A DNA stretch of 12,160 bases, taken from positions 1-12,160 of IMG/VR virus record IMGVR_UViG_2609459803_000002, one strand, 5' to 3'. A model generated the notes under the pieces. That model was not told where the DNA came from and made no database searches. It saw only the letters and a list, made by a program, of their open reading frames with translations. Positions within the stretch are counted from its first letter, which is position 1. Each line of letters opens with the position of its first letter. Shown piece by piece: positions 1 through 12,160 of the stretch. Origin of the DNA: a virus (lineage: Duplodnaviria; Heunggongvirae; Uroviricota; Caudoviricetes). The translations under genes and the position numbers were made by a program.

Positions 1-123
1 TGCAAATTCATTATAAACATCATCACTGACAGCCAGAGCATCATCTGGCCATGAATTTGCATTAATGTAATCATCCTTAAGTGCAGGATTCACAAAAATG
101 TTTAAAGATGGACTATAAAACAT
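1..123 (-). CDS. Tail fiber assembly protein (Tfa-like chaperone), N-terminal 41 codons only; gene runs off the window start
   Basis: ATG at 123..121 sits one nt after the tail fiber stop. Own translation MFYSPSLNIFVNPALKDDYINANSWPDDALAVSDDVYNEFA carries the WP.DA..VS..Y.EF N-terminal signature recalled for enterobacterial tail fiber assembly proteins. Absent from the ORF track because it is partial. Confidence 0.5.
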   Translation of the reverse strand, partial: MFYSPSLNIFVNPALKDDYINANSWPDDALAVSDDVYNEFA

Positions 124-124
124 A

Positions 125-763
125 TTACACCCCTATAGCGATATAACGACCTAATACAGCGTTTGCAGCAGTCGCTATGCTTGAAAAACCGCGGAACTGA
201 TTTGATGTAATTGCAGAAGCCGACAGGATTCCTGCGCCTGAAGGTGTATGCCCCACATGACTAACTATCATTCCATAACATGCTGACGGAAAGGCAAAAG
301 GAAAATCGTTAAGATATCCGGCATCTTCACCACCAGACCCACCAAATCTCGCCTGCCCCCACTGAATAATCAGTGTTCTCCGGGAACCTGAAATAATTAA
401 CGGGATCGTTACATACCCATTCAGGCCAATGACACCAGATGCAGTGCCAGCCAGAGATAATTCTCCCAAACCAAGGTTTTCGAGAGCCGTTTTCACGGTG
501 CCATCCGATTTGATATCGCCAAACGGATTCTTGCGGCTTAACAGCAGCGCACGAAGCGCGGTAAGCAGCTGGTCGTGTTGCGCCTTCTCCAGACTAGCAC
601 CGGATGCCTCCACCACGCTGCAAAGCTCCTCCTGCAACATGTCAAAGTAGTCATCATCCAGATCGGTAGCAGGCGTGCCAGTCTGGGGGTTACCACGGGT
701 AAAACCGTTTTTACCCGCGCCGAACTTATCCTTCTGCGCGGTTTTCGTGTCTATACGATGCAT
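125..763 (-). CDS. Phage tail fiber protein, short (212 aa)
   Basis: ORF-track protein ([22 protein letters not shown]...) with Gly/Ser-rich C-terminal half, GGAG ribosome-binding site 6 nt upstream of the ATG, and a tightly coupled tfa-like gene immediately downstream. Family assignment is by context and recall, not by search. Confidence 0.55.
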
Positions 764-1574
764 GGATTACTCCGGATACCGAACCGTTGAGCATCTCGAT
801 AACTTCCCGCCGCTTGTCGTAGCACGGCCCCTCAATGTTGTACCCGGCGGTGGTGATGGCCCACATCAGTGGCTGACGTCGCGCGCCCATCCCGGTAAGC
901 ATCGTGGTATAAAGCGCATCGGTGGCGTGCTCGTGATATTCATCCACCACGGCACAGTGGGGTGATGAACCATCACCGGGGTTACCGATCAGCGGTTCAA
1001 ACCGCGCGCCATCCTCCGGACGGTTCATGTTTGAGGCGTTAACCTCAATCCCGAACGCTTCCGTCAGCATGGGTGTGCGTTTACACATCAGTCGCGCCGG
1101 GCGAAAGACTTCCCACGCCTGTTTCTCTGTCGTGGCACCGGAATACACTTCCGCGCCAAACTCGTTATCACAGGCAAAACAATACAGGGCAACACCGGCA
1201 GAGATTGCCGATTTGCCGTTCTTACGGGGGATTTCGGTATACACCTCCCTGAAGCGGCGCAGCCGGGAGCCTTTATTGACCCAGCCAAACGCACAGCAGA
1301 TCACAAAGAGCTGCCACGGTTCCAGCGTGATGGGCATCCTCTTGAATGCCCACTCCCCCTTGGTGTGTGGCAACAGCTGAATAAATTTCGCGGCCCGTTC
1401 AGCCAGGTCCTTGTCGAAGCGGTAACGAAACGACTTACTTTTTTCCGCCATCAGGTCATCAAGATGGCGCTGGCAGGCCTGAATCACAAACTGGCAGGCC
1501 ACAATCTTTCCGCGCACGACATCACGGGCATACTGATTGGCAGCATTTACGTTGGGGTAAGATTTCCGGCTCAT
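726..1574 (-). pseudogene. Large terminase subunit, N-terminal ATPase domain only (3'-truncated remnant of a roughly 550-aa HK97-type protein)
   Basis: Walker A-like IPRKNGKS and Walker B-like CAVVDEYHE motifs are present. The ORF stops at 282 aa, shortly after the ITTAG motif, with no nuclease domain in any frame; the next gene is the tail fiber. Start overlaps the TerS stop, as is typical. Confidence 0.75.
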
Positions 1575-2065
1575 GATTCGATGATTTTCAGAAACGGGTT
1601 AGTGGCTTTCTTCTGCCCCGCCAGGCCAATCAGACGCTGGCGGCTGCTGGGGTCGAGTCCGAGCATTGCCCCCGTGCTGCTCATCTCGGACTCCTGTTCT
1701 TTCTTGGCGGTCAGCTCCGGATTTTTGACCATGCCACCCATTGCACCGGTGATGGTGTTGCCCTGTCTGGCAATATTTTTCACGGCACGCCGCCAGAACT
1801 CGTAGGCCACGCACCACCGCTCAAGCACCGCGAGGTCAGTCACGCACAGCAGGCCCTGACCGCAGAGTTCTTTGGTTGTCAGTTGCCACATGATCGTGGC
1901 GAGAGGGAGATCTTCTTCAGCGAACCACTCCGGTGGCTCAACACCTTTGATGGGCGTAAAAACAGGTTCATCTTTATTCAGGGCTCGCTTGCCGGGGTTT
2001 CCGGCCAGCGCCTTGCGCGCCGTTGGCTTGGGGCGACGCCCGGACCCCCCCGCCGTTCCAGCCAT
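1571..2065 (-). CDS. Small terminase subunit, P27 family
   Basis: N-terminus [30 protein letters not shown] matches the recalled P27-family signature. Start chosen at ATG 2065..2063 (AGGAG 8 nt upstream) rather than the GTG at 2074 used by the ORF track. Confidence 0.8.
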
Positions 2066-2104
2066 ATGCGGCACTCCTGGTTAAATTTCATTTTTCGCGG
2101 GTAT

Positions 2105-2164
2105 AAAAAAACGATGGGGCGGGCAGTCCGGAAGACGTCAGGTCACAGGGATGTGACCCGCCCC
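2105..2164 (-). other. GC-rich nested inverted repeat between HNH and TerS: candidate cos/packaging site or intrinsic terminator
   Basis: GGGGCGGG (2116-2123) pairs with CCCGCCCC (2157-2164) and encloses the hairpin GTCACA-ggga-TGTGAC (2142-2157). A run of 7 A (2105-2111) gives a U-tract on the minus strand after the structure. Confidence 0.3.
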
Positions 2165-2190
2165 TCCCCTCAGACAGTTGAGAGTTATTA

Positions 2191-2541
2191 TCACTTTAAC
2201 CGTTCACGGACCGTCTTCGCCTTATGACACGGCCAACACAGACTCTGCAGATTACAGTCGGCATCAGTGCCGCCATGCGCTTTAGGGATGATGTGGTCAA
2301 CGGTTTTCGCCTCACGCACCACACCGGCACGCAGACATAACTGACATAAACCTTTGTCACGCTTCAGCACACGCGCGCGGATAGCGTCCCACTTCGAACC
2401 ATAACCGCGCTGATGACGGGACTGACCTGGCTTGTATTGCTTCCAGCCTTCGCTTTTGTGGCTTTCGCAGTAGCCTGACGGGTCTGTGGTTGTAGAGCGG
2501 CAGCCGCGAACACGGCAGGCTTTTGGGGTTCGTGGTGGCAT
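2191..2541 (-). CDS. HNH endonuclease (phage packaging-associated)
   Basis: Cys/His pattern CQLC...VDHIIP...GG...NLQSLCWPCH typical of HNH; GGAG ribosome-binding site 7 nt upstream of ATG 2541; located directly upstream of TerS as in HK97-like phages. Confidence 0.85.
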   Translation of the reverse strand: MPPRTPKACRVRGCRSTTTDPSGYCESHKSEGWKQYKPGQSRHQRGYGSKWDAIRARVLKRDKGLCQLCLRAGVVREAKTVDHIIPKAHGGTDADCNLQSLCWPCHKAKTVRERLK

Positions 2542-2559
2542 TGGTAAGCTCCAATAAAA

Positions 2560-2585
2560 AAGCCACCATCGATTGCTAGTGGCTT
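2560..2585 (-). terminator. Terminator-like hairpin downstream of the orphan gene
   Basis: AAGCCAC (2560-2566) pairs with GTGGCTT (2579-2585) around a 12-nt loop; on the minus strand the stem is followed by a U-run. The stem is short, so strength is uncertain. Confidence 0.3.
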
Positions 2586-2611
2586 AGCATCTACTAATGT
2601 GAAGAGTAGGT

Positions 2612-3370
2612 TTATTTTTTCTTCTTATTTAACTTATCTAAATTGACGGGATCTTTCCCTGTGGCAGCTAAACACCAAAAAGAATAACTCTTTTGCATGA
2701 CATAGGTTCTAATTCTCTCTAATGTTTCATTATATTTTTTCTCAACAACCTGTATCGCATGTTCAAATAAATTAATCATATCAACATGCTCGTCCTCGAC
2801 ACCAATCATGCTCAGTTGTTTTCTATCTGTCACTGCTTGATAAAATGTTTTCCCATTTTTCCTTATTAGTAACAATGAAGTTTCTGCTGACTCATAGTCT
2901 TGGTTGCCGCTATGTGCTGCAAAATTATGCCTGTAGTTAATAATACAGTCATGCAACCCAAAATATTCAGAATCAAGCCAATCACGCTCCATCTTTAACT
3001 TTCTCCCTTTAGCTTCAGAGAAAGCTTTACCATAAAACGTTAGGCTTGCCACAAATAACGCTCTAATTTCACTTGATAAATCTAGATCAAGTATATTCCC
3101 GTATAACTTGCCATCTGTCCTTAATTCGTTTCTCCCTGCCAGTTCATTAGCTATTTGGTACCACTCTTTAGCACTTTTTAAGTCCCTATGAATTAGTGAC
3201 AGTGAAGATGCTCTATCGGCAATACGCCCACTCAATTTTATGCGATCTACAATTTCATTATTGAATGTATAAACCGCTTTAAATTCCCCCGTTTCGGAAT
3301 CAATATAATATTCAACATCTAACCCTTCATATGATTCACACCCGGGACCTTCTAATTTTTTTCTTTTCAT
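2612..3370 (-). CDS. Hypothetical cytoplasmic protein (252 aa), AT-rich cargo gene with an Rx5H motif (possible HEPN-like abortive-infection or toxin protein)
   Basis: Long clean ORF in a visibly AT-richer stretch. Start taken at ATG 3370..3368 (M9 of the ORF-track protein, whose first codon is TTG). Motif YRHNFAAH lies within an otherwise unassignable sequence; no signal peptide or membrane segment is evident. Confidence 0.6.
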   Translation of the reverse strand: MKRKKLEGPGCESYEGLDVEYYIDSETGEFKAVYTFNNEIVDRIKLSGRIADRASSLSLIHRDLKSAKEWYQIANELAGRNELRTDGKLYGNILDLDLSSEIRALFVASLTFYGKAFSEAKGRKLKMERDWLDSEYFGLHDCIINYRHNFAAHSGNQDYESAETSLLLIRKNGKTFYQAVTDRKQLSMIGVEDEHVDMINLFEHAIQVVEKKYNETLERIRTYVMQKSYSFWCLAATGKDPVNLDKLNKKKK

Positions 3371-3451
3371 ATAGAATATCCATATACGTTTCAATTCTCA
3401 GTCAGCATAGTAGAAAAAAAAGATGTCCAGATCCATACATCGAAAGCAATT

Positions 3452-3916
3452 TTAGTTTTCACACTGACTAGAGATATAGTCCTGCAATGCTCTTATCTGT
3501 TTATAACTGATTTCAATTCTCTCTCTGAGGGTGAAATAATCCCGTTGAGCGGTGTCAGTAAGTCGGGGGGCGGTAGCATCATCCAGGCTGGTGGTAATGG
3601 TCGTTGATTGCACTCTCGGGCAACTAGCGGCGAGGAACAGCCGCTTAGTGCCAACAGCAACATCACGCTGAAGCTGTTCAATAGTTGCTTTAGCATTTGC
3701 AAGTTCTCCGGTGTATTTCGCATCGAGCGCAGAAACATCACGCTGGCGCTGCTGCATCTCAGTAATGGTGGCGTTCGCCTGGCTGAGTTTTTCCTTCGCT
3801 TTATCGCGCTGTTCTTTGTAGGCGATGGCGTTATCACGATAATGATTAACAGCCCATGATAGGCAGACGATGGTGCAGATAACCAGAGAGGACAGAATCG
3901 CAGTTACTCTACTCAT
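3452..3916 (-). CDS. Rz: Rz inner-membrane spanin
   Basis: From the internal start [31 protein letters not shown] the protein closely matches recalled lambda Rz (N-terminal membrane segment, coiled-coil body). ATG at 3916..3914 overlaps the endolysin stop. Confidence 0.85.
3493..3696 (-). CDS. Rz1: Rz1 outer-membrane lipoprotein spanin, embedded in the +1 frame of Rz
   Basis: Internal start gives [22 protein letters not shown]... with lipobox LSGC, then the proline-rich [27 protein letters not shown], closely matching recalled lambda Rz1. Confidence 0.75.
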
Positions 3917-4391
3917 ATAGCTGAATTTCTCTGACCGTTCCGCCCGATTCTTTGAATTTTTCAATCAGGCTGTCAACCTTATGTTCGAACTGACCATAAC
4001 CAGCGCCCGGCAATGACGCCCAGATATTGCTGCAACGATCAATAGCCTGACGGATATCGCCGCGATCAATCATCGGTAAAGCACCACGCTCTTTAATCTG
4101 CTGCAATGCCACAGCATCCTGGCTTTTTGGAGAGAAGTCTTTCAGCCCAAGCTGCTTACGGTAAGCATCCCACCAGCGTGAAAGAAGCTGATAACGTCCT
4201 GCGGCTGTTGATTTAAGTTTCGGGTTTAGCGTGACAAGTTTGCGAGGGTGATCGGAGTAATCAGTGAACAGTTCACCTCCGACAATAACGTCATAACCGT
4301 GGTTACGTGTCGGTTGTCGCCCGTTATCCGTTCCTTCTGACCATGCCACCATATCGAGGAAAGCTTTACGCTGGGAATTTAGTACCTGCAT
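3909..4391 (-). CDS. R: Endolysin, lambda R-type lytic transglycosylase
   Basis: [61 protein letters not shown]... is near-identical over most of its length to recalled lambda R. Confidence 0.9.
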
Positions 4392-4394
4392 AAA

Positions 4395-4721
4395 TTACTC
4401 CTTAGAGCCACCAAACTTATTACCGATTACTCTCATTGCAGCCCCACGAATAGCATCGACCCCGATCAGCCCAACGCCGCCACCAATGGCAACAGAAAGA
4501 GATTTAGGCCATCCGACATACTCAAGAGCGGATGCAAAAGTCAGCGTCAGAGCACCACAGAGCAAAATCTCGAGCGTTTTTCGTTTCCAGCCACCACCAC
4601 CGCCAAAATAGGCAATGCGCAAGCCAGCCATAACGATCGACATAATCACTGCGCCCAGCGGTGTGTCTCCACGCCACCAGCTCTGGACCAACTCCAGCCA
4701 GGTATTTGGGTTATGAGGCAT
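4395..4721 (-). CDS. Holin, lambda S-like (three-membrane-segment class I)
   Basis: Sits immediately upstream of the endolysin. Hydrophobic segments and motifs (MAGLRIAYFGGGG; GVDAIRGAAMRVIGNKFGG) line up with lambda S features (MAYLRGRYNGG; GTDSIGSLIKRFAAKKAG). Exact start not resolved. Confidence 0.7.
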   Translation of the reverse strand: MPHNPNTWLELVQSWWRGDTPLGAVIMSIVMAGLRIAYFGGGGGWKRKTLEILLCGALTLTFASALEYVGWPKSLSVAIGGGVGLIGVDAIRGAAMRVIGNKFGGSKE

Positions 4722-4963
4722 TTGTAGTTATCTCTCACCTCGCCGATACAGGAGGTGCAAATTGAGGGAGTACCACGAACCGCAAACCAGAAGCGGAAAC
4801 GTAAAAGAAGCCGAGCCAATGGATAAGTGCTAGATAGACCAAGCCCAACGAATACCAAGGCCCAGAAATGACAAAACCCGCTCGACGGCAGGTTTAAGCT
4901 GTGTGGCGAAGTAACCACTCTTAACAGATTACACGATAAAATGCGGACCGCGTGAGGAAAACT

Positions 4964-5056
4964 ATGGTTTTTTTGAAGCGAATGAGTAAAATCAACGCCA
5001 CTTTGCACATAAGTTATCCACACTGTACGTTTGCAAAATCTCATTGCTCTCTTTGA
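4964..5056 (+). CDS. Small ORF (30 aa, MVFLKRMSKINATLHISYPHCTFAKSHCSL) upstream of the peptidase gene; candidate leader peptide or small protein
   Basis: GAGGA ribosome-binding site 5 nt upstream of ATG 4964; below the ORF-track size cut-off. No family signature. Confidence 0.2.
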   Translation: MVFLKRMSKINATLHISYPHCTFAKSHCSL

Positions 5057-5175
5057 GTTTTGTAAATGCGCTAATTTTTGGACTTTTTTTGCCGATAGAA
5101 TCTAACCACTTGTGTGGTAAGTTCTGAATGAATGTTACCTCTTGGTTTGAAAATTCTTAACATAAGGACATCTGA

Positions 5176-6171
5176 ATGTTTGAGCAGCGTAAAGCCCTGT
5201 ATGCGCAACTGGAACAAGCACGCAATTCAAAAGTATTATGCTATGTAACAGGTGATAGACCAAACCAAGAAGCTCAAATCAGCGCTGATGTATTCGATCT
5301 GTTCGTCAATCATCTTGATGTGATAGGTGATGTTCAAAAAATTAGCCTCGTGCTCTATACGCGAGGCGGCGACACTTTAACAGCATGGAGCCTTGTAAAC
5401 CTGCTTCGTCAGTTTTGTAAAGAACTCGAAATCATAATCCCATCAAAATGCCATAGTTCTGGGACGATAATGTGCCTTGGCGCGAACAACTTGGTTATGA
5501 CCAAGCAGGCAACCTTAGGGCCAATCGATCCAAGTGTGAATACACCACTTAACCCTTCGGCCATAATCAATGGGCAGCCACTTCAACTTCCAGTCAGTGT
5601 TGAAGAAATCAATGGCTATCTTGAAGTAGTTAAGCATGATTTGAGTATCAAAGATGATGCCTCACTTGCACAGATCCTCCTTGCATTAAGTGAAAAGGTT
5701 CATCCCTTGGTACTTGGAAAAGTCTATCGAGCTAAAGCGCAGATTCAAATGCTCGCAAGAAAACTACTGTCTCACCAACTCACTGATAGTGAAAGCATTG
5801 AGAAAATTGTAAGTTTCCTTTGTAGTGATTCTGGTAGCCATGACTACACTATAAATAGGATTGAAGCGGTAAACGATTTAGGTCTTACGGTGGAAAAACC
5901 AGATGAGCACCTTTACGGTCTGATCAAAGAAATTTATGAAGATTTCAAAACTGAGATGCATCTGGGTGAACCTTTTGACCCAAATGCTATCTTAGGAACA
6001 GTTAACCAGGCATCGTACGTATCTGTCAGAAGCATTTTAGAGGCTCCAGACACGTTTTCATATCAATTCCGCACTGAGGGGATGTTACAGCGTTTTCAAG
6101 TTCCAGGCGTCCCAGGTCAGTTCGGCATAAATCATAACCTTATCTCAGAGGGGTGGGCTCGACATGGATAA
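5176..6171 (+). CDS. ClpP/crotonase-fold serine peptidase (SppA / S49 / SDH-proteinase-like), cargo gene
   Basis: AAGGA ribosome-binding site 7 nt upstream of ATG 5176. Segment LVLYTRGGDTLTAWSLVNLL ... IIIPSKCHSSGTIMCLGANNLVMTKQATLGPIDP matches the GG ... (A/S)SxGT ... TLG.I core of ClpP/SppA-fold peptidases. Opposite strand to and AT-richer than the flanking phage genes. Confidence 0.7.
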   Translation: MFEQRKALYAQLEQARNSKVLCYVTGDRPNQEAQISADVFDLFVNHLDVIGDVQKISLVLYTRGGDTLTAWSLVNLLRQFCKELEIIIPSKCHSSGTIMCLGANNLVMTKQATLGPIDPSVNTPLNPSAIINGQPLQLPVSVEEINGYLEVVKHDLSIKDDASLAQILLALSEKVHPLVLGKVYRAKAQIQMLARKLLSHQLTDSESIEKIVSFLCSDSGSHDYTINRIEAVNDLGLTVEKPDEHLYGLIKEIYEDFKTEMHLGEPFDPNAILGTVNQASYVSVRSILEAPDTFSYQFRTEGMLQRFQVPGVPGQFGINHNLISEGWARHG

Positions 6172-6343
6172 CAAATCATCTACAGGTAACTTTGTAGTCT
6201 ATACTAACAGGCATACAACTACAGCTGCGCCTAAGCCAGCAAGCATTCCATCCACTGCTCAAAAAACAAGCAACAATGGCGTCAATGGCTACAGTAACTT
6301 TTTAAGTTGCACCACAGGTTCAGTCATAAAAAACAGTTTCTAA
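6164..6343 (+). CDS. Small S/T/N-rich ORF (59 aa), translationally coupled to the peptidase gene
   Basis: ATG 6164 overlaps the peptidase stop in an ATGGATAA arrangement, with GGTGGG upstream. Own translation MDNKSSTGNFVVYTNRHTTTAAPKPASIPSTAQKTSNNGVNGYSNFLSCTTGSVIKNSF; stop at 6341-6343 lies directly before the terminator hairpin. Could be spurious given its low complexity. Confidence 0.3.
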   Translation: MDNKSSTGNFVVYTNRHTTTAAPKPASIPSTAQKTSNNGVNGYSNFLSCTTGSVIKNSF

Positions 6344-6344
6344 A

Positions 6345-6371
6345 AACAACGGCTCTCTAAGAGCCGTTGTT
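6345..6371. terminator. Bidirectional intrinsic terminator hairpin between the convergent Q and peptidase operons
   Basis: Perfect stem ACAACGGCTC (6346-6355) / GAGCCGTTGT (6361-6370), extendable by one A-T pair, with loop TCTAA. Followed by a U-run on the minus strand and a weaker U-rich tract on the plus strand. Confidence 0.5.
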
Positions 6372-6375
6372 GTAT

Positions 6376-6738
6376 CTATTCACATTCTAAACGTATATCG
6401 AGCATACTAAGGCAACCATCGATAAATCCCTCAGCCATCTGTATCTCAATGCGTATTAGTTTCTCATCCTTTTTACTAGCCTTGGCGAGCTTTCTTTTAG
6501 AGATACCGTATAGGTAATGGGCAACAAGAAGCGAATGTTCGTCCGGCCTTTTTTGCTTTAGACGAGCAAGACAACCTTCAATAATTAATGCATCACTATC
6601 TGAACAAGCCTGACGTGTTTTACTTGTATAGGGAAGAAGCCCTTTAAACCCAGCAGCTATAGGCGAATAATCTACTCCAGAACTATCACTCGCCGCCCAT
6701 GCTCCCCAACGCTCCAGAACCATCTGAATATCACGCAT
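6376..6738 (-). CDS. Late-gene antiterminator Q (phage 82 / QuuD-like family)
   Basis: N-terminus MRDIQMVLERWGAWAA and C-terminus GFIDGCLSMLDIRLE match the recalled QuuD-type signature. Start taken at ATG 6738 (GGAG 7 nt upstream) rather than the TTG at 6753. Position between the nin-like genes and the lysis cassette fits. Confidence 0.8.
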   Translation of the reverse strand: MRDIQMVLERWGAWAASDSSGVDYSPIAAGFKGLLPYTSKTRQACSDSDALIIEGCLARLKQKRPDEHSLLVAHYLYGISKRKLAKASKKDEKLIRIEIQMAEGFIDGCLSMLDIRLECE

Positions 6739-6755
6739 CAACTTTCTCCACAAAA

Positions 6756-7751
6756 TCAGGCCAGCACACCAATCGCCAGCGCACGATCGATAAAACGAAA
6801 TATCAGCTCCAGCTGGGAGCCATACTTCTCTTCAAATGCCACGGTATCCGCATGCAGCTCGTCGTGATGCTTTCTGCACAAAGGCAACACAAAAAGGTCA
6901 TGCGCTTTTGTACCCATTCCACCCTGACCGTGGCCTATCAGGTGGTGGGGATCATCAGCGGGCTTTCCACAACATGCACACGGCTGCGTCTTAACCCAGC
7001 GCGTGTACTTTTCATTAACCCAGCGGCGACGTTTTGGGCGTAACATAAAAGACTCCGGCGACTCCGGCTCCACTTTCAGCGCCAGCACCTTTTTCGCTTT
7101 ATCCTGGATGATGCTGGTGGCAGGAACCGAAGGAACAAGATCACTTTCCCGGGTGACAGACGGCACAACAGGCTTCGGTAATCTCAGTGCCTTACGGGCT
7201 GCACTTTCCGGTAAGGCATCCGCCAGGTCATTACGAACCAGCCACCAGCACAGTTCCGGCATTGTCACAACGTGACTGTCATCAAAACCGAGATCCCGAC
7301 GCACGACAGACAACACCCAGCTGGCACAGTTATCCGTTGCCATTGATTCCAGCCGTTCCGTGAACTGATCGCGCAGCTGGTTATCGCAGTGCCAGCACAG
7401 ACGGATTGCGCCCGGAGCGTGTCGCATTGTGGTCATGTTCTCGCTGTGCCAGTCGGAATGAGGCCACTGGCAGCCTTTTTCACGAAGTAACCAGCTTTCA
7501 AGACATTCCACGCCACCAGCACGACGGATCACCGCCTCATTGCGGAACACAGCCCGAACGGCAGGATCATCCGCCAGTGGTTGTAATGCCGCCGGAACGG
7601 CACCACTGGAAAAAGATGAATAATGTTCCGGCTCAGGCTCCAGCAGGACACGCCCCTGCATAAACAGGGGCATCAGCTCTGAACCGGGTCTGAACAATAC
7701 GATCCCCATACGCGGGGCAATTTCAGGGGTCAGTAGCGCTCTCACGGTCAC
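6756..7751 (-). CDS. DUF968/YdfU-like prophage protein with a C-terminal HNH-like Cys/His cluster
   Basis: C-terminal CACCGKPADDPHHLIGHGQGGMGTKAHDLFVLPLCRKHHDELH; family name is from recall and unverified. GTG start abuts the KilA-N stop; exact start uncertain. Confidence 0.6.
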   Translation of the reverse strand: MTVRALLTPEIAPRMGIVLFRPGSELMPLFMQGRVLLEPEPEHYSSFSSGAVPAALQPLADDPAVRAVFRNEAVIRRAGGVECLESWLLREKGCQWPHSDWHSENMTTMRHAPGAIRLCWHCDNQLRDQFTERLESMATDNCASWVLSVVRRDLGFDDSHVVTMPELCWWLVRNDLADALPESAARKALRLPKPVVPSVTRESDLVPSVPATSIIQDKAKKVLALKVEPESPESFMLRPKRRRWVNEKYTRWVKTQPCACCGKPADDPHHLIGHGQGGMGTKAHDLFVLPLCRKHHDELHADTVAFEEKYGSQLELIFRFIDRALAIGVLA

Positions 7752-7752
7752 C

Positions 7753-8556
7753 TCAATGAACGGTATCGAGCAGCTTTAACAGCTCAGGGAATCGGGATTC
7801 GAAGAAATGCGGCTGCGTCTCACGCGGATTTGCAGGACTGGTGATGTTCTTGCCGAACATGCAGCCTTTCGCCGTCAGCGACCAGAATTTTTTAATGTTG
7901 TTAATTGCGGTACGGCTGTATCGTTCGCGTTGTTCAACGATCCCCAGCTTCGCCATCTGGTGATATGCCTGATTAGCCGTCAGGCGGATACCATACTGCT
8001 TCAGCAGTGCACTCAGCGCCAGCGTCGGGCGGCTTGAGCCATCAGGCGCGTCAGCAGGAGCATCAATGGCATAGCGCGGTGCCAGATTCGGTAAGCCAAC
8101 AGCCTCCTGGAGTTTCTGACAGGCACCAAGCACAGATGAGTTAGACAGGTTTAACTCCCGACGCATAAAGTCCAGCAGAATCACACCAGCCTGCATCTTG
8201 TCAGCAGCCTGCCCGGATAATTTTTCCGGTGCGCTGGTTACCATATCGAAAGTACGGATCACCTTCAGATGGAATGACGGGCTGATCCACATTGCATAGG
8301 CATACACCAGTTCTTTGCAGACATACGTCCCCTGGTTATTTCCGCCACGAATAACGTTAACTGGCTCTATATTGACATTGACCGAGTTGCAAATCTGCAA
8401 CTCGCTTATTAAACGTTCAGTTTGCTCATTGCGGAGCCAGAATGCAGGCTTATGCTTATCCAGAGAACCGGCAGCCCTGTGCAGATCGTTCAGGCTGTAA
8501 CGACCATAAGCATCACGACGAACTTCAATACCATCAATGACCATCAGATTATTCAT
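7753..8556 (-). CDS. KilA-N domain protein (antirepressor-like)
   Basis: N-terminal MNNLMVIDGIEVRRDAYGRYSLNDLHRAAG...KHKPAFWLRNEQTERLISEL resembles the KilA-N DNA-binding domain. Start at ATG 8556 with GAGGAG 9 nt upstream (the ORF track starts at an upstream GTG). Confidence 0.7.
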   Translation of the reverse strand: MNNLMVIDGIEVRRDAYGRYSLNDLHRAAGSLDKHKPAFWLRNEQTERLISELQICNSVNVNIEPVNVIRGGNNQGTYVCKELVYAYAMWISPSFHLKVIRTFDMVTSAPEKLSGQAADKMQAGVILLDFMRRELNLSNSSVLGACQKLQEAVGLPNLAPRYAIDAPADAPDGSSRPTLALSALLKQYGIRLTANQAYHQMAKLGIVEQRERYSRTAINNIKKFWSLTAKGCMFGKNITSPANPRETQPHFFESRFPELLKLLDTVH

Positions 8557-8575
8557 ACTTCGTTTCTCCTCTTGA

Positions 8576-8875
8576 TCAGGCGGCTGCACCCGCCGTTTTC
8601 TCGTACTTACTGATAGTGATCTCGACCTTCCCTTCCGGGATAACCGGTCCCCACTCCACCAGCATTCTTTTCACCTGACTGTCGTCTTCCCACACACCCG
8701 CGTGGGTCAGGGCGTCAAACAGCGCCTTGTTATAGTTGTCCAGATCGCGGATCCGGTTACAGGAAGCGCAATCAGTTGCGAGCGACGGTAGTGTGTTGTT
8801 AAACTGTTCATGCGTTAGTTTCTCCACAGTCACGACACGCCACGGCGCCCGGAGCTGCACACTCGCGGGCGTCAT
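8576..8875 (-). CDS. rusA: RusA-like Holliday junction resolvase
   Basis: RIRDLDNYNKALFDALTHAGVWEDDSQV matches the RusA catalytic-aspartate region (RRDLDN...FDAL...DD). Start taken at the first in-frame ATG (8875); this gives a shorter N-terminus than recalled RusA and overlaps the upstream gene by 68 nt. Confidence 0.6.
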   Translation of the reverse strand: MTPASVQLRAPWRVVTVEKLTHEQFNNTLPSLATDCASCNRIRDLDNYNKALFDALTHAGVWEDDSQVKRMLVEWGPVIPEGKVEITISKYEKTAGAAA

Positions 8876-9404
8876 TACTTTCTGAAATGCAAAAGATTTT
8901 GTAGACCAGTGCTGCATGCTCCTGCAGCTTCGAAATTGAGAGATACAGCTCGTCGTTAATTGCTGTCTTCTCATGCGGTTCCACCACACCGTCTTCGATT
9001 GCCGAACGAATCTGTCTGGAATAACTGCCAATCTGTTCAATGACTTCCAGCAGGCGCTGGTTAATATCGGCGTTGTCCACATCCTCGACGTCAGGAAGAG
9101 ACACAAAGACGCCATTTGCAGACTGCGCCACAGCGTCAGCAATGAAGTGAGTTCCACCAGCACGTTGCAAAATCATTGCCCATCCCAGCGGGAAAATCTG
9201 ATCGCCATCGGCACGAAGGCGGTTAAATAATGCGTTTTCTGTTACATCCAGCCAGTCAGCTGCTTCAGCGTAACCACCCGGCAACGCTGCGATAGTTTTT
9301 CTGACAGCTTTCACGTACCACTCAGGCTGTTTTTCTACTTTCCAGTGATGCTTACCCACGGTTAGCCTCATCGTTCTGTGGTTTCTGTTAATCGATTTAT
9401 CCAT
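8808..9404 (-). CDS. CII-like regulatory protein (phage 186 CII / e14 YmfL type)
   Basis: Central segment YAEAADWLDVTENALFNRLRADGDQIFPLGWAMILQRAGG parallels the helix-turn-helix region recalled for phage 186 CII. Lies directly after cro. Start is ambiguous (ATGs at 9416, 9404, 9371); 9404 overlaps the cro stop as ATGGATAA. Confidence 0.5.
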   Translation of the reverse strand: MDKSINRNHRTMRLTVGKHHWKVEKQPEWYVKAVRKTIAALPGGYAEAADWLDVTENALFNRLRADGDQIFPLGWAMILQRAGGTHFIADAVAQSANGVFVSLPDVEDVDNADINQRLLEVIEQIGSYSRQIRSAIEDGVVEPHEKTAINDELYLSISKLQEHAALVYKIFCISESNDARECAAPGAVACRDCGETNA

Positions 9405-9597
9405 TAGATTTTTCATAAAGCTCAGGTTTAAATGGCAACCGTCCGCAAGTTCTATATGCAGCTTCTGCTGCACGTCCTTTTGGAATTAACTGGCCCGGAC
9501 GGTTTCGCCACTGATAAACGGCTTCAGTTGTTATGCCGAAAAAAGCAGCAACTTTCTCAATACTGCCGAAGTAGCTTTCGATATCGTCAGTTGTCAT
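9397..9597 (-). CDS. Cro-like small helix-turn-helix regulator
   Basis: 66 aa, divergent from the repressor across a 97-bp operator region; GGAGG ribosome-binding site; sequence VAAFFGITTEAVYQWRN is consistent with a helix-turn-helix. Confidence 0.6.
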   Translation of the reverse strand: MTTDDIESYFGSIEKVAAFFGITTEAVYQWRNRPGQLIPKGRAAEAAYRTCGRLPFKPELYEKSNG

Positions 9598-9694
9598 ACG
9601 CCCTCCAAACTAAGTTTTATTAGATGCTAATTACAAATCTATCTTTGGTCAATAAAAACTAAGATTACTTAGCAATTCAAGAAATGGTGCTCCT
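9598..9694. promoter_or_regulatory. Divergent promoter/operator region of the immunity switch
   Basis: Minus-strand promoter candidate TTGACC (9652..9647) -17 nt- TAGCAT (9629..9624) for cro. Operator-like palindromes CTAAG-ATTA-CTTAG (9659-9672) and CTAAG-TTTT-ATTAG (9610-9623) flank it. Confidence 0.5.
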
Positions 9695-10321
9695 ATGGAA
9701 ACGGTTGGTCAGCGTATAAAAGCTCTGAGAAGAGTTACCGGAACGTCCCAGAAAGAATTGGGTAAATTTTGTGGAGTAAGCGACGTTGCTGTGGGGTACT
9801 GGGAGAAAGACATCAATACCCCTGGTGGGGAGGCACTTTCGAAATTAGCGAAGTTCTTCAATACGTCAATAGATTACATTCTTTATGGTGCTGAGTTTGA
9901 AGGCAAACTCGTCACAAACATGCGCAGAGTTCCTGTAATATCGTGGGTTCAGGCTGGGCAGTTTACTGAGTGCAGGGCAGCAGAAGTGTTTAGTGAAGTG
10001 GACAAGTGGGTAGATACATCATTAAAGATTGGTGATAACTCATTTGCATTAGAGGTTAAAGGTGACTCCATGACTAACCCTAATGGCCTCCCAACAATAC
10101 CAGAAGGCGCAACAGTGATTGTAGATCCAGATGCAGAACCTCGTCATGGAAAAATAGTCATCGCTCGACTTGATGGAACAAACGAAGCTACAGTAAAAAA
10201 ATTAGTCATCGATGGCCCTCAAAAGTTTTTAGTGCCATTAAATCCTCGGTATCCCAACATCCCTATCAATGGTAATTGCCTTATCATTGGTGTAGTCAAA
10301 GGAGTTCAATACGAACTCTAA
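9695..10321 (+). CDS. cI-like prophage repressor (N-terminal helix-turn-helix plus C-terminal LexA-like S24 autopeptidase domain)
   Basis: N-terminal QKELGKFCGVSDVAVGYWE helix-turn-helix; Ala-Gly cleavage site in VQAGQF; catalytic Ser in KGDSM and Lys in TVKKL. Confidence 0.9.
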   Translation: METVGQRIKALRRVTGTSQKELGKFCGVSDVAVGYWEKDINTPGGEALSKLAKFFNTSIDYILYGAEFEGKLVTNMRRVPVISWVQAGQFTECRAAEVFSEVDKWVDTSLKIGDNSFALEVKGDSMTNPNGLPTIPEGATVIVDPDAEPRHGKIVIARLDGTNEATVKKLVIDGPQKFLVPLNPRYPNIPINGNCLIIGVVKGVQYEL

Positions 10322-10343
10322 GACCTCTCTTCTCTAACTAAGG

Positions 10344-10376
10344 CACCGAACTAAGAAAAGTTTGGTGTTTTCTCTT
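10344..10376 (+). terminator. Intrinsic terminator downstream of the repressor gene
   Basis: CACCGAACT (10344-10352) pairs with AGTTTGGTG (10359-10367), 9 bp including one G-U, loop AAGAAA, followed by TTTTCTCTT. Confidence 0.5.
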
Positions 10377-10403
10377 GCCATAATAACTAAGTTAAGTTAG
10401 ATT
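10375..10403 (+). promoter_or_regulatory. Sigma70-like promoter candidate with overlapping operator-like palindrome
   Basis: TTGCCA (10375-10380) -17 nt- TAGATT (10398-10403). CTAAG-TTAA-GTTAG (10386-10399) sits in the spacer and resembles the operator motif next to cro. Confidence 0.3.
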
Positions 10404-10527
10404 TTATATCAAAGATAACGAACAGGCAGGACGCCCACGAAGTAGCCGCCTGGGGAATATGAAGTCCAGGATGATTCGTTGAGTCATGTTGTGCCACCAG
10501 GCACTCATGTTAAAGCAGGTGTATGAA

Positions 10528-10803
10528 ATGAAAGTCCAGATTTTAAACAATAACTGTGAAGTCGTTTGGTCATACGACATAGCCGCCCCTGTAGATCAGA
10601 GCGGCGATAGCTGGACCAATGGGAAACATCAGATTATGGCTGGAGTTGTGTTCTCTTTACGCCGTGCTTTGGAACAGGCTGAAGTATTTCCATCAGACCC
10701 TGAATGGAAATGGCCTTTTTCTATTTGTCCAAATTCGGAGAGCACATTTCAGAAAATTGGTCAGAAAGTCGCACTCGAAGAGCATCAGCCAACTGTTTCC
10801 TGA
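10528..10803 (+). CDS. Hypothetical protein (91 aa), first gene outward from the repressor's far side
   Basis: Start at ATG 10528 with AGGTG 8 nt upstream (the ORF track starts at 10486). Not arginine-rich, so not an obvious N-like antiterminator. 3' end overlaps the convergent minus-strand ORF. Confidence 0.4.
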   Translation: MKVQILNNNCEVVWSYDIAAPVDQSGDSWTNGKHQIMAGVVFSLRRALEQAEVFPSDPEWKWPFSICPNSESTFQKIGQKVALEEHQPTVS

Positions 10804-10966
10804 TTTTTTCAGGTAACTCGTCGGCATCGCAGAAACAACAACGCTCGATCATGTTGAAAGCCGATTCGTAGAACTGTTTCTGCTGAGTGTCGCTGAGACA
10901 GGAAAAGAGCGACGTTACGATGATTTTATTAATTGCATTATCAAGTTCTTTTTCATCAAAAGTCAT
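10721..10966 (-). CDS. Hypothetical small protein (81 aa, Cys-containing CCFCDADE segment)
   Basis: AAGGA ribosome-binding site 8 nt upstream of ATG 10966; plausible charged, helical composition; convergent with and overlapping the 3' end of the 10528-10803 ORF by 83 nt. Confidence 0.5.
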   Translation of the reverse strand: MTFDEKELDNAINKIIVTSLFSCLSDTQQKQFYESAFNMIERCCFCDADELPEKIRKQLADALRVRLSDQFSEMCSPNLDK

Positions 10967-11220
10967 TTGATTTTCCTTTTATGTATACGGGCTTAAAAGG
11001 ATACCACCGAGCCTGAAGTGGTGAAAAGACAGGCACATAACAGCTAAGTATTTTCAACCAGAGAGAATCCTTAGCGTTGTGGTGAATGCGGCTCAGCGCA
11101 CGCGGGTTAAGGTTGAGGCTGACAGTCGACCTTCTGTAGATACCCACCCGCCTGGTGTGCAACCTTCGCCAGGCACCGGGAGGCACCCGGCACCACAACT
11201 TTATGCTGTGTGTAGTCCTG

Positions 11221-11267
11221 GCGGTACCAGTTTGTACCCTTGCTTCCGGCTGGTACCGCTCTTTTTA
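11221..11267 (+). terminator. Terminator-like hairpin inside the GC-rich noncoding island
   Basis: GCGGTACCAG (11221-11230) pairs with CTGGTACCGC (11250-11259) around a 19-nt loop, followed by TCTTTTT. Confidence 0.35.
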
Positions 11268-11403
11268 CAAAACAGAGAAGAGCATCACCGGACGACGGGC
11301 TCATAAACCAATCCATCCGGGCGGCTGCCACCGCAGGTGTTCTTCTCTGTTTTGTGGAGAAACTAATCGGCCTTGCAGGGTCGATATGATGAGGAGCAGC
11401 AAA

Positions 11404-11766
11404 ATGGCTAGCGAACGCAGTACTGATGTGCAGGCATTTATCGGGGAGCTGGACGGCGGCGTATTTGAAACCAAAATCGGCGCAGTTCTCAGTGAAGTCG
11501 CTTCCGGTGTGATGAACACGAAAACCAAAGGTAAGGTCTCACTCAACCTGGAAATCGAACCATTTGATGAGAACCGTGTGAAAATCAAACACAAACTCTC
11601 ATATGTTCGCCCGACTAACCGCGGGAAAATTTCCGAAGAAGACACCACCGAAACGCCGATGTATGTCAATCGCGGTGGTCGCCTGACTATTCTGCAGGAA
11701 GACCAGGGACAGTTACTGACTCTTGCCGGTGAACCTGACGGAAAACTCCGCGCAGCAGGTCATTAA
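11404..11766 (+). CDS. Conserved prophage protein of unknown function (120 aa; possibly YfdP-like)
   Basis: Start at ATG 11404 with GAGGAG 7 nt upstream; the ORF-track extension upstream of this is GC-rich junk-like sequence. YfdP resemblance rests on recalled size and neighbour only. Confidence 0.6.
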   Translation: MASERSTDVQAFIGELDGGVFETKIGAVLSEVASGVMNTKTKGKVSLNLEIEPFDENRVKIKHKLSYVRPTNRGKISEEDTTETPMYVNRGGRLTILQEDQGQLLTLAGEPDGKLRAAGH

Positions 11767-11831
11767 TATCGTTCTTAATTAACTGATTATTTATCTCATC
11801 ACTGAATATCTTTATATAGTGAGGACTTATT

Positions 11832-12160
11832 ATGTCTCAGAACTTAGACGCAACCGCAATTAATCAAATCCATGCCCTTATTTCTGCTCAGAGTGTTAAT
11901 GAAATTATCAGTAAGATTGGTGCCGATGCTGTGGCATTGCCTGAGAATTTCCGCATTCATGATCTGGAAAAATTTAATTTAAATCGCTTCCGTTTCCGTG
12001 GTGCGCTTTCCACTGCCAGCATCGATGACTTTACCCGTTATTCTAAAGATCTTGCAGATGAAGGCACCCGCTGCTTTATCGATGCTGATAATATGCGTGC
12101 CGTCAGTGTGCTTAACCTGGGTACTATTGATGAACCAGGTCACGCAGATAACACCGCCAC
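11832..12160 (+). CDS. Conserved prophage protein of unknown function, N-terminal part (possibly YfdQ/DUF2303-like); runs off the window end
   Basis: ATG 11832 with GAGGA 6 nt upstream. Own translation [110 protein letters not shown] has no stop within the window. Not in the ORF track because it is partial. Confidence 0.6.

Follow-up and report, generated by a model that had tools for sequence, protein, structure and literature searches.

A small gene that overlaps the end of an SDH-type ClpP-fold protease gene in an Escherichia coli prophage is conserved with the protease and probably its functional partner in a candidate anti-phage cassette

The anti-phage systems named by DefenseFinder include FS_HP_SDH_sah, a pairing of a hypothetical protein with an SDH_sah protease, of which the name alone is taken here from PMC13532340. 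In the pair formed by the NfeD/1510-N protease and stomatin (PDB 3viv, 6m4b), a ClpP-fold protease is encoded beside the protein on which it acts. We describe here a locus that shares features with both and that lies within a 12,160-nucleotide (nt) stretch of DNA from a virus of the Caudoviricetes (positions 1 to 12,160 of IMG/VR record IMGVR_UViG_2609459803_000002); this whole stretch is referred to as the window. On the plus strand of the window, a gene for an SDH-type ClpP-fold serine protease of 331 amino acids (aa; 5176..6171) is followed by a small open reading frame (ORF) of 59 codons plus a TAA stop (6164..6343), which begins before the protease gene has ended. As in type II toxin-antitoxin and abortive-infection loci, the two genes form an overlapping and apparently co-transcribed pair on a mobile element, in which one partner is small, predicted to be disordered, fast-evolving and co-diverging with the other. 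The small ORF is real, conserved, coupled in position to the protease gene and co-inherited with it. The best overall explanation, which we consider likely, is that it constitutes the coupled second gene of a two-gene cargo module carried by a prophage, probably with an anti-phage function.

The ORF had been pointed out in an earlier reading of the window made from its letters alone (the sequence-only reading), which described a 59-codon frame at 6164-6343 overlapping the stop codon of a peptidase gene. The overlap is as described there: the protease gene ends in CAT GGA TAA, the ATG of the small ORF (6164-6166) is contained within these codons, and the two genes share 8 nt (ATGGATAA). The GGTGGG noted upstream of the start is likewise present at 6152-6157, 6 nt before the ATG and inside the protease codons Glu325-Gly326-Trp327, which make up the Shine-Dalgarno-like sequence GAGGGGTGGG (6148..6157, plus strand). 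The product of the small ORF, MDNKSSTGNFVVYTNRHTTTAAPKPASIPSTAQKTSNNGVNGYSNFLSCTTGSVIKNSF, includes the stretches SSTGNFVVYTNR and TSNNGVNGYSNFLSCTTGSVIK. Its residues are 63% Ser, Thr, Asn, Gly, Ala and Pro and its sole hydrophobic stretch is FVVY, in agreement with the earlier description of a low-complexity product that lacks a hydrophobic segment; neither the protease nor the small protein has one. Disorder had also been suggested, and the AlphaFold model of the small protein alone (mean predicted local distance difference test (pLDDT) of 57, no secondary structure) is consistent with this, predicting a protein that is intrinsically disordered on its own. The expectation that annotation would miss the ORF was borne out as well: the Prokaryotic Genome Annotation Pipeline (PGAP) used for RefSeq does not call it in E. 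coli, where the 30 listed records show only the protease and the Q antiterminator gene in this region, and gene callers have overlooked the ORF in the loci of most relatives. The small protein has no match in Pfam, NCBIfam, PHROGs or PADLOC.

Five database proteins are 76-93% identical to the product of the small ORF and are, like it, 59 residues long, and the frame is intact in these relatives, without stops or indels. At first, second and third codon positions, respectively, the window differs from one relative (L022) at 7, 7 and 30 sites and from another (L023) at 10, 9 and 34 sites; a third comparison gave 1, 4 and 13 differences. The ratio of nonsynonymous to synonymous substitution rates (dN/dS) of the small ORF is 0.03-0.11 where computable, and the values for the other two frames of the same alignment are mostly above 1. 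When uncorrected proportions of nonsynonymous and synonymous differences are used (pN/pS), the small ORF yields 0.12-0.19 and the protease gene 0.08-0.09. Because the low pN/pS and the excess of third-position changes are found in its own frame only, the small ORF is under purifying selection, about twofold weaker than that on the protease gene. Conservation of the frame and the pattern of synonymous and nonsynonymous change had been named in the sequence-only reading as the check to make, and the ORF passes it, with a related ORF still found beside proteases of as little as 43% identity. Judged from these comparisons of sequence, the small ORF is almost certainly a genuine translated gene.

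In addition, ~155 further loci were fetched from metagenomes and IMG/VR, and the sequence downstream of the protease gene was searched for an ORF of at least 40 codons that begins with ATG between the codon of the protease's C-terminal Trp and a position 30 nt past the protease stop. Enough downstream sequence was available for 180 loci, with protease homologues 43-100% identical to that of the window, and such an ORF was found in 167 of them, in several phyla and varied genomic contexts. The distinct small products number 121 and are mostly 52-90 aa in length; only 6.5% of composition-matched shuffles are open through 52 codons. Overlaps of 4, 8, 11 and 14 nt dominate, such that both alternative frames are in use. 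Throughout the family, codons of the form GAR-GGN-TGG (Glu-Gly-Trp) lie 4-7 nt before the ATG and supply a Shine-Dalgarno-like GGNTGG, a Shine-Dalgarno-like tetramer is present 3-12 nt upstream of the ATG in 111 of 121 distinct loci, and the protease itself shows no variation at Gly326 and Trp327 and at least 90% conservation at Glu325. Where the protease is 67-78% identical, an ATG-initiated ORF of 54-64 codons overlaps the protease stop, the products are related and rich in Ser, Thr and Asn, and a terminator follows each; the same arrangement recurs in Brachyspira, Paenibacillus and Sedimentisphaerales at protease identities of 52-55%. The surroundings of the pair vary, being DinI and tail genes in L028-L030, the nin region in L192-L194, the prophage end in L189-L191, and the position after a cI-like repressor gene in Pectobacterium (L033). 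A conserved upstream partner of the protease was also sought and none was found: among ~140 loci there is no conserved same-strand upstream gene, and the small ORF is therefore the only constant neighbour of the protease. On one metagenomic contig (L196, 197-370), the microprotein gene is preceded only by an ORF of 57 aa that ends in ..FEGWRYEK, a typical protease C-terminus; this ORF may be a truncated or decayed protease.

The two proteins diverge together: pairwise identities among the small proteins track those among the proteases (Mantel r 0.73, p about 0.001). Divergence is much faster in the small protein, which is down to ~21% identity at protease identities of 60-70%. Two short elements can be recognized in the small proteins. 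The first, common to them, is x-[IVLF]-x-Y, N-terminal and strand-like, with [ST][ST][SA] after it; the second, found in most branches, is [ST][ST][AS]xx[DG][SN]L[AIS]x[IL][IML][KR][ND] followed by hydrophobic residues, and it is degenerate in the enterobacterial branch (..VNGYSNFLSCTTG). With the tested group left out of training, a hidden Markov model (HMM) built from the group with 62-68% protease identity detected the window group at E-values of 3e-7 to 2e-5 (best decoy 0.37), and one built from the group at or below 61% did so at 0.03-0.18 (best decoy 3.6). When 1.84 billion cluster representatives were searched with a profile, 70 matches were returned, nearly all of 53-92 aa, and a word-indexed profile search of 5.8 billion sequences returned 21 matches for the partner family. 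Of two matches from outside the training set that were inspected, one is encoded immediately downstream of the last codons of an SDH-type protease gene, and upstream of the other there is an ORF that is only a 57-aa fragment and ends in the typical FEGW. Some family members (L045, L054, L067, L075, L105, L152 and L156) are longer, at 103-195 aa, and join the N-terminal microprotein module to an extra C-terminal domain; they likewise have no Pfam match, and the extensions might represent the effector or sensor side of the partner.

These data bear on whether the small ORF needs to be a gene of its own. It is short, of low complexity and unannotated by PGAP, and it adjoins the Q gene, a frequent place for regulatory DNA in lambdoid phages; it could thus be a chance ORF, or be kept open by an element on the opposite strand, for instance a late promoter after Q, or by translation that serves mRNA stability or polarity. 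We regard this as extremely improbable. The third-position bias and low pN/pS are specific to the frame of the small ORF and amino acid motifs are conserved throughout the family; the chance ORF that the sequence-only reading had kept as an alternative is rejected by the evidence of selection together with the 167 of 180 loci. As to the opposite strand, loci that lack a Q gene in the vicinity have the small ORF just as regularly, that strand itself has no ORF reaching 50 aa across it, and Rfam has no match in 4600-6900. A specific candidate of this kind, in which the ORF region would act as an opposite-strand late promoter or qut site, was rejected, given that homology in the Q region ends at ~6385-6397, that the segment is an inserted cassette, and that the ORF is kept without Q. 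The ORF overlaps the last protease codons in another frame, as would also be expected of a C-terminal extension of the protease that is reached by programmed ribosomal frameshifting. Such an extension has next to no probability, however, in view of the ATG and Shine-Dalgarno-like motif that occur at the correct spacing in nearly all loci, of a relative frame that varies (-1 for the 4-nt ATGA overlap and +1 for overlaps of 8, 11 and 14 nt), of the gap that separates the genes in some loci, and of the overlap in the window, in which no slippery heptamer was seen.

The protease itself was assigned on the basis of PF01972 (ClpP-like SDH-type serine proteinase), which it matches over residues 53-124 with 53.6 bits at a gathering cut-off of 31.3. 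In PGAP the protein is called "SDH family Clp fold serine proteinase", and it corresponds to phrog_11747, a PHROGs entry with no assigned function. Ser94, Asp118, His222 and Asp223 are invariant across 32 homologues, and we infer that the catalytic triad is drawn from these residues. The AlphaFold model (pLDDT 86.6) predicts a ClpP-like core, a helical domain and a C-terminal three-stranded sheet, and the top PDB matches in Foldseek are the stomatin-specific protease 1510-N, SppA and ClpP (probability 1.00, E about 1e-5); some homologues also have a weak match to NfeD1b_N. The protein thus carries the conserved Ser, Asp and His residues of SDH-type proteinases on a predicted ClpP/crotonase-like fold, its score against the NCBIfam equivalog NF047768 stays below the cut-off, and it is a divergent clade of its superfamily. 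Homologue searches gave 4102 matches. None of the cultured phage genomes contains a close homologue, and in 5426 complete E. coli genomes DNA similarity detected no other members of the subfamily, only the variant of the window. Literature searches on this protease clade gave essentially nothing.

Based on these observations, we propose that the locus is a two-gene operon that would be read from a promoter region through the SDH-type protease gene and the small gene to a terminator. The small gene would be translationally coupled to the protease gene, with the Glu-Gly-Trp codons doubling as its Shine-Dalgarno sequence, and ribosomes that finish the protease could then initiate the small protein and keep the two products at a set ratio. 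The small protein, belonging to a family of about 55-90 aa, is very probably a functional partner of the protease, as judged from the sequence comparisons, and would most likely work by binding its cognate protease, possibly through the two short conserved elements. For the cassette as a whole, the balance of the evidence leans towards a role in anti-phage defence or exclusion, in which the pair, expressed from the prophage, would serve the lysogen as a toxin/antitoxin-like module. How the small protein would act within it is a more tentative matter. We provisionally favour, at less than even confidence, a cognate regulator that inhibits the protease or occupies it as a pseudosubstrate, restraining it until phage infection, over a cleaved substrate or an adaptor. 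A broader and rather doubtful extension of this proposal is that disordered microproteins of about 55-90 aa, widespread and so far unrecognized, are tied by obligatory translational coupling to a distinct clade of SDH proteases with the ClpP fold and together form a new protease-based immune switch in phages and prophages of many phyla; the microprotein would be a fast-evolving bait or inhibitor whose displacement or destruction on infection would unleash the protease, a mechanism distinct from any characterized one in defence.

Several results weigh against this proposal. On the side of the protease, the score against NF047768 is 69 bits at a cut-off of 250, and no PADLOC model matches either the protease or the small protein. 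The small protein alone yields no confident AlphaFold structure, and neither it nor 16 diverse members of the family contain a DNA-binding or antitoxin domain in Pfam or NCBIfam. The homology between the window branch and the most distant branch is weak, at E-values of 0.03-0.18 that were obtained with a small database. The strict start criterion failed in 13 of the 180 loci, most of which have a longer overlap, and one variant, P0006, encodes a 46-aa microprotein owing to a frameshift after residue 34 in two assembled contigs, which reflects either a sequencing error or occasional gene loss. Evidence for a promoter is also weak, since a consensus scan of the region upstream of the protease gene gave no strong sigma-70 match.

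The main alternative to an inhibitor or pseudosubstrate, by analogy with known proteases, is that the small protein is a dedicated substrate or pro-peptide, which the protease would cut, for example at the two [ST][ST]A elements, to release an active effector, a signal or a degron-bearing bait. There is precedent in the closest solved relative, the 1510-N/NfeD protease, which cuts its operon partner stomatin, and the top structural matches include 1510-N bound to a substrate peptide and SppA, whose own C-termini occupy its active sites. The weak NfeD1b_N similarity of some homologues points in the same direction, and a partner that is predicted to be disordered and exposed, that has two repeated small-residue motifs, and whose gene is coupled to and co-inherited with that of the protease would suit a substrate. 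The cleavage site is purely hypothetical, however, no branch of the family has a transmembrane segment, signal peptide or toxin domain, and the fast turnover of the small protein is more typical of a binding partner that co-evolves or takes part in an arms race than of a bioactive peptide. On this evidence we consider a dedicated substrate unlikely. A peptide precursor, either resembling those of ribosomally synthesized and post-translationally modified peptides (RiPPs) or giving rise to a signalling peptide, would instead be matured by the adjacent peptidase and then modified and/or exported. The small product rich in Ser, Thr and Asn, with one Cys and an adjoining peptidase, could be read in this manner, and yet the cassette has two genes, none of them for a modification enzyme or transporter, and among ~140 loci neither these nor any other conserved neighbour accompanies the pair. 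The product has no signal peptide or hydrophobic segment, the Cys is not conserved (Cys makes up 0.7% of the residues in the family), and conserved stretches are scattered over the length of the protein, with no division into a leader and a hypervariable core, all of which renders a precursor very improbable.

The pair is embedded in a cassette with signals of its own. The noncoding part upstream of the protease gene (4953..5175, plus strand), which begins where homology to other phages stops (~4952-4956), presumably holds the promoter of the cassette. A TGCCGATAG-like motif at 5090-5098 (plus strand), ~80 nt upstream of the protease start, is kept in six loci with otherwise divergent flanks and could be a promoter element or operator; the ribosome-binding site of the protease gene, AAGGA, is at 5164-5168 (plus strand). 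One base past the stop of the small ORF, scanning and folding identified a GC-rich hairpin of 12 bp at 6345..6371, with a folding energy of -18.7 kcal/mol and a z-score of -5.9 on the plus strand. A U-run follows it on both strands, the better one (UUUUU) being on the minus strand, from which Q is read, and the hairpin, placed where the small ORF (plus) and Q (minus) converge, probably acts as an intrinsic terminator in both directions. Within 110 nt after the small ORF, terminator-like hairpins were found in 51 of 112 distinct loci at a median distance of 17 nt; by comparison, 6 of 112 loci had one within the small ORF itself and 3 of 112 had one in the 3' end of the protease gene. The hairpin of the window may also stop read-through from Q, in which case the late promoter pR' must be located elsewhere.

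The window belongs to a lambdoid prophage of E. coli, with piecewise matches to many lambdoid phages, and 47 of 5426 complete E. coli genomes contain the segment under study at an identity of 99% or more. In RefSeq strain QDFD216, all of the phage genes (replication and nin genes, Q, holin, lysis, terminase and portal) are on the minus strand of the window, including Q at 6376..6753 and the holin gene at 4395..4721. The gap between Q and the holin gene contains a single annotated gene, the "SDH family Clp fold serine proteinase" at 5176..6171 on the plus strand, and there is no annotation from its stop to Q. Homology to other phages breaks at ~4952-4956 on the holin side and at ~6385-6397 within the end of Q, and in related phages that do not have the cassette the homology resumes at 4952 and 6397. 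The cargo cassette, consisting of upstream region, protease gene, small ORF and terminator, therefore spans ~4953-6396 (plus strand). The backbone on either side of the slot (window 4873-4952 and 6397 onward) is shared with phage cdtI at 88-91% identity, while in cdtI the slot itself is filled by orf54 (313 aa) and orf53 (147 aa; L197, 993-2500), both on the opposite strand and unrelated to the genes of the cassette. Because homology breaks on both sides and cdtI has other genes in the slot, the unit at ~4953-6396 is exchangeable cargo on the strand opposite to the flanking phage genes, and the site right after Q and convergent with it is a cargo hot spot. In relatives the cassette occupies other classic cargo positions of prophages and invariably runs against the phage genes beside it; it may stand immediately behind the repressor gene, within the nin region, or close to the tail fibres where the prophage ends. 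In one locus with a protease 78% identical (L031, 1774-2406), a HicA/HicB toxin-antitoxin pair lies beside the cassette in the same gap between Q and holin, which fits a slot that gathers accessory or defence genes.

Further observations concern the surrounding prophage. In strains AH02 and CT01 (NZ_CP081704.1 and NZ_CP081794.1), the same prophage sequence is also present as a separate record of ~43.7 kb that is annotated as a plasmid, suggesting that the assembly captured the phage genome in its excised, circular form and hence that the prophage is active. An ORF of 132 codons at 4646-5044 (minus strand of the window), with no Pfam match and unannotated by PGAP, overlaps the holin start and the upstream region of the cassette. 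Upstream of the holin gene, a terminator-like hairpin at 4874-4895 (minus strand), within a segment common to cdtI, SfIV and lambda-like phages, is compatible with a tR'-type terminator of the late leader.

If our proposal is correct, a class of prophage cargo cassettes is being misread as a lone "serine protease" and is really a two-component unit, and, should the immune switch exist, the pair has been hidden from surveys since the partner gene is rarely called. Uncalled microprotein genes would break detectors of two-component defence systems and mislead experiments in which the protease is cloned alone. The pair would also offer a tractable model for the gating of a ClpP-fold protease by a small disordered partner. 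A clean genetic handle is provided by T6165C, which changes the microprotein ATG to ACG and is silent in the protease (CAT to CAC, His).

Comparison with known systems places the cassette between several of them. To the ClpP/S49-like head-maturation proteases it has distant HMM similarity in protease residues 43-114, although the score is 28 bits at a cut-off of 120; moreover, the protease gene of the window is located between Q and holin, on the opposite strand and with its own terminator, separate from the portal and terminase genes. The tail assembly inhibition (Tai) system was considered as the identity of the cassette and rejected, as the Tai paper makes no mention of SDH or a protease. 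The layout agrees with that of a type II toxin-antitoxin operon in that the genes are co-oriented, with 8 nt in common, one upstream region for both and a terminator behind the second of them. It differs in that the small protein has no DNA-binding domain (helix-turn-helix, ribbon-helix-helix or AbrB), is encoded downstream of the enzyme, and matches none of the known toxin-antitoxin families. The NfeD/1510-N and stomatin pair provides the closest solved fold; unlike stomatin, the partner in the window is ~60 aa, soluble and predicted to be disordered, with no SPFH/Band-7 domain (no Pfam hit), and the protease, only ~15% identical to 1510-N in sequence, is without membrane segments, adds a helical domain and has a sheet of three strands at its C-terminus. 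FS_HP_SDH_sah is reportedly derived from the work of Fillol-Salom and colleagues in 2022 on phage-inducible chromosomal islands, whereas the host element in the window is a lambdoid prophage. The comparison is at the level of the name, by which the make-up of the two is the same, each being a two-gene module of a mobile element that pairs a PF01972 protease with an uncharacterized protein; in the window, the PF01972 match was obtained with the Pfam profile rather than DefenseFinder's own, and the module is mobile-element cargo in the slot between Q and holin. By analogy, we therefore describe the cassette as a variant that resembles FS_HP_SDH_sah rather than as a confirmed member of that system.

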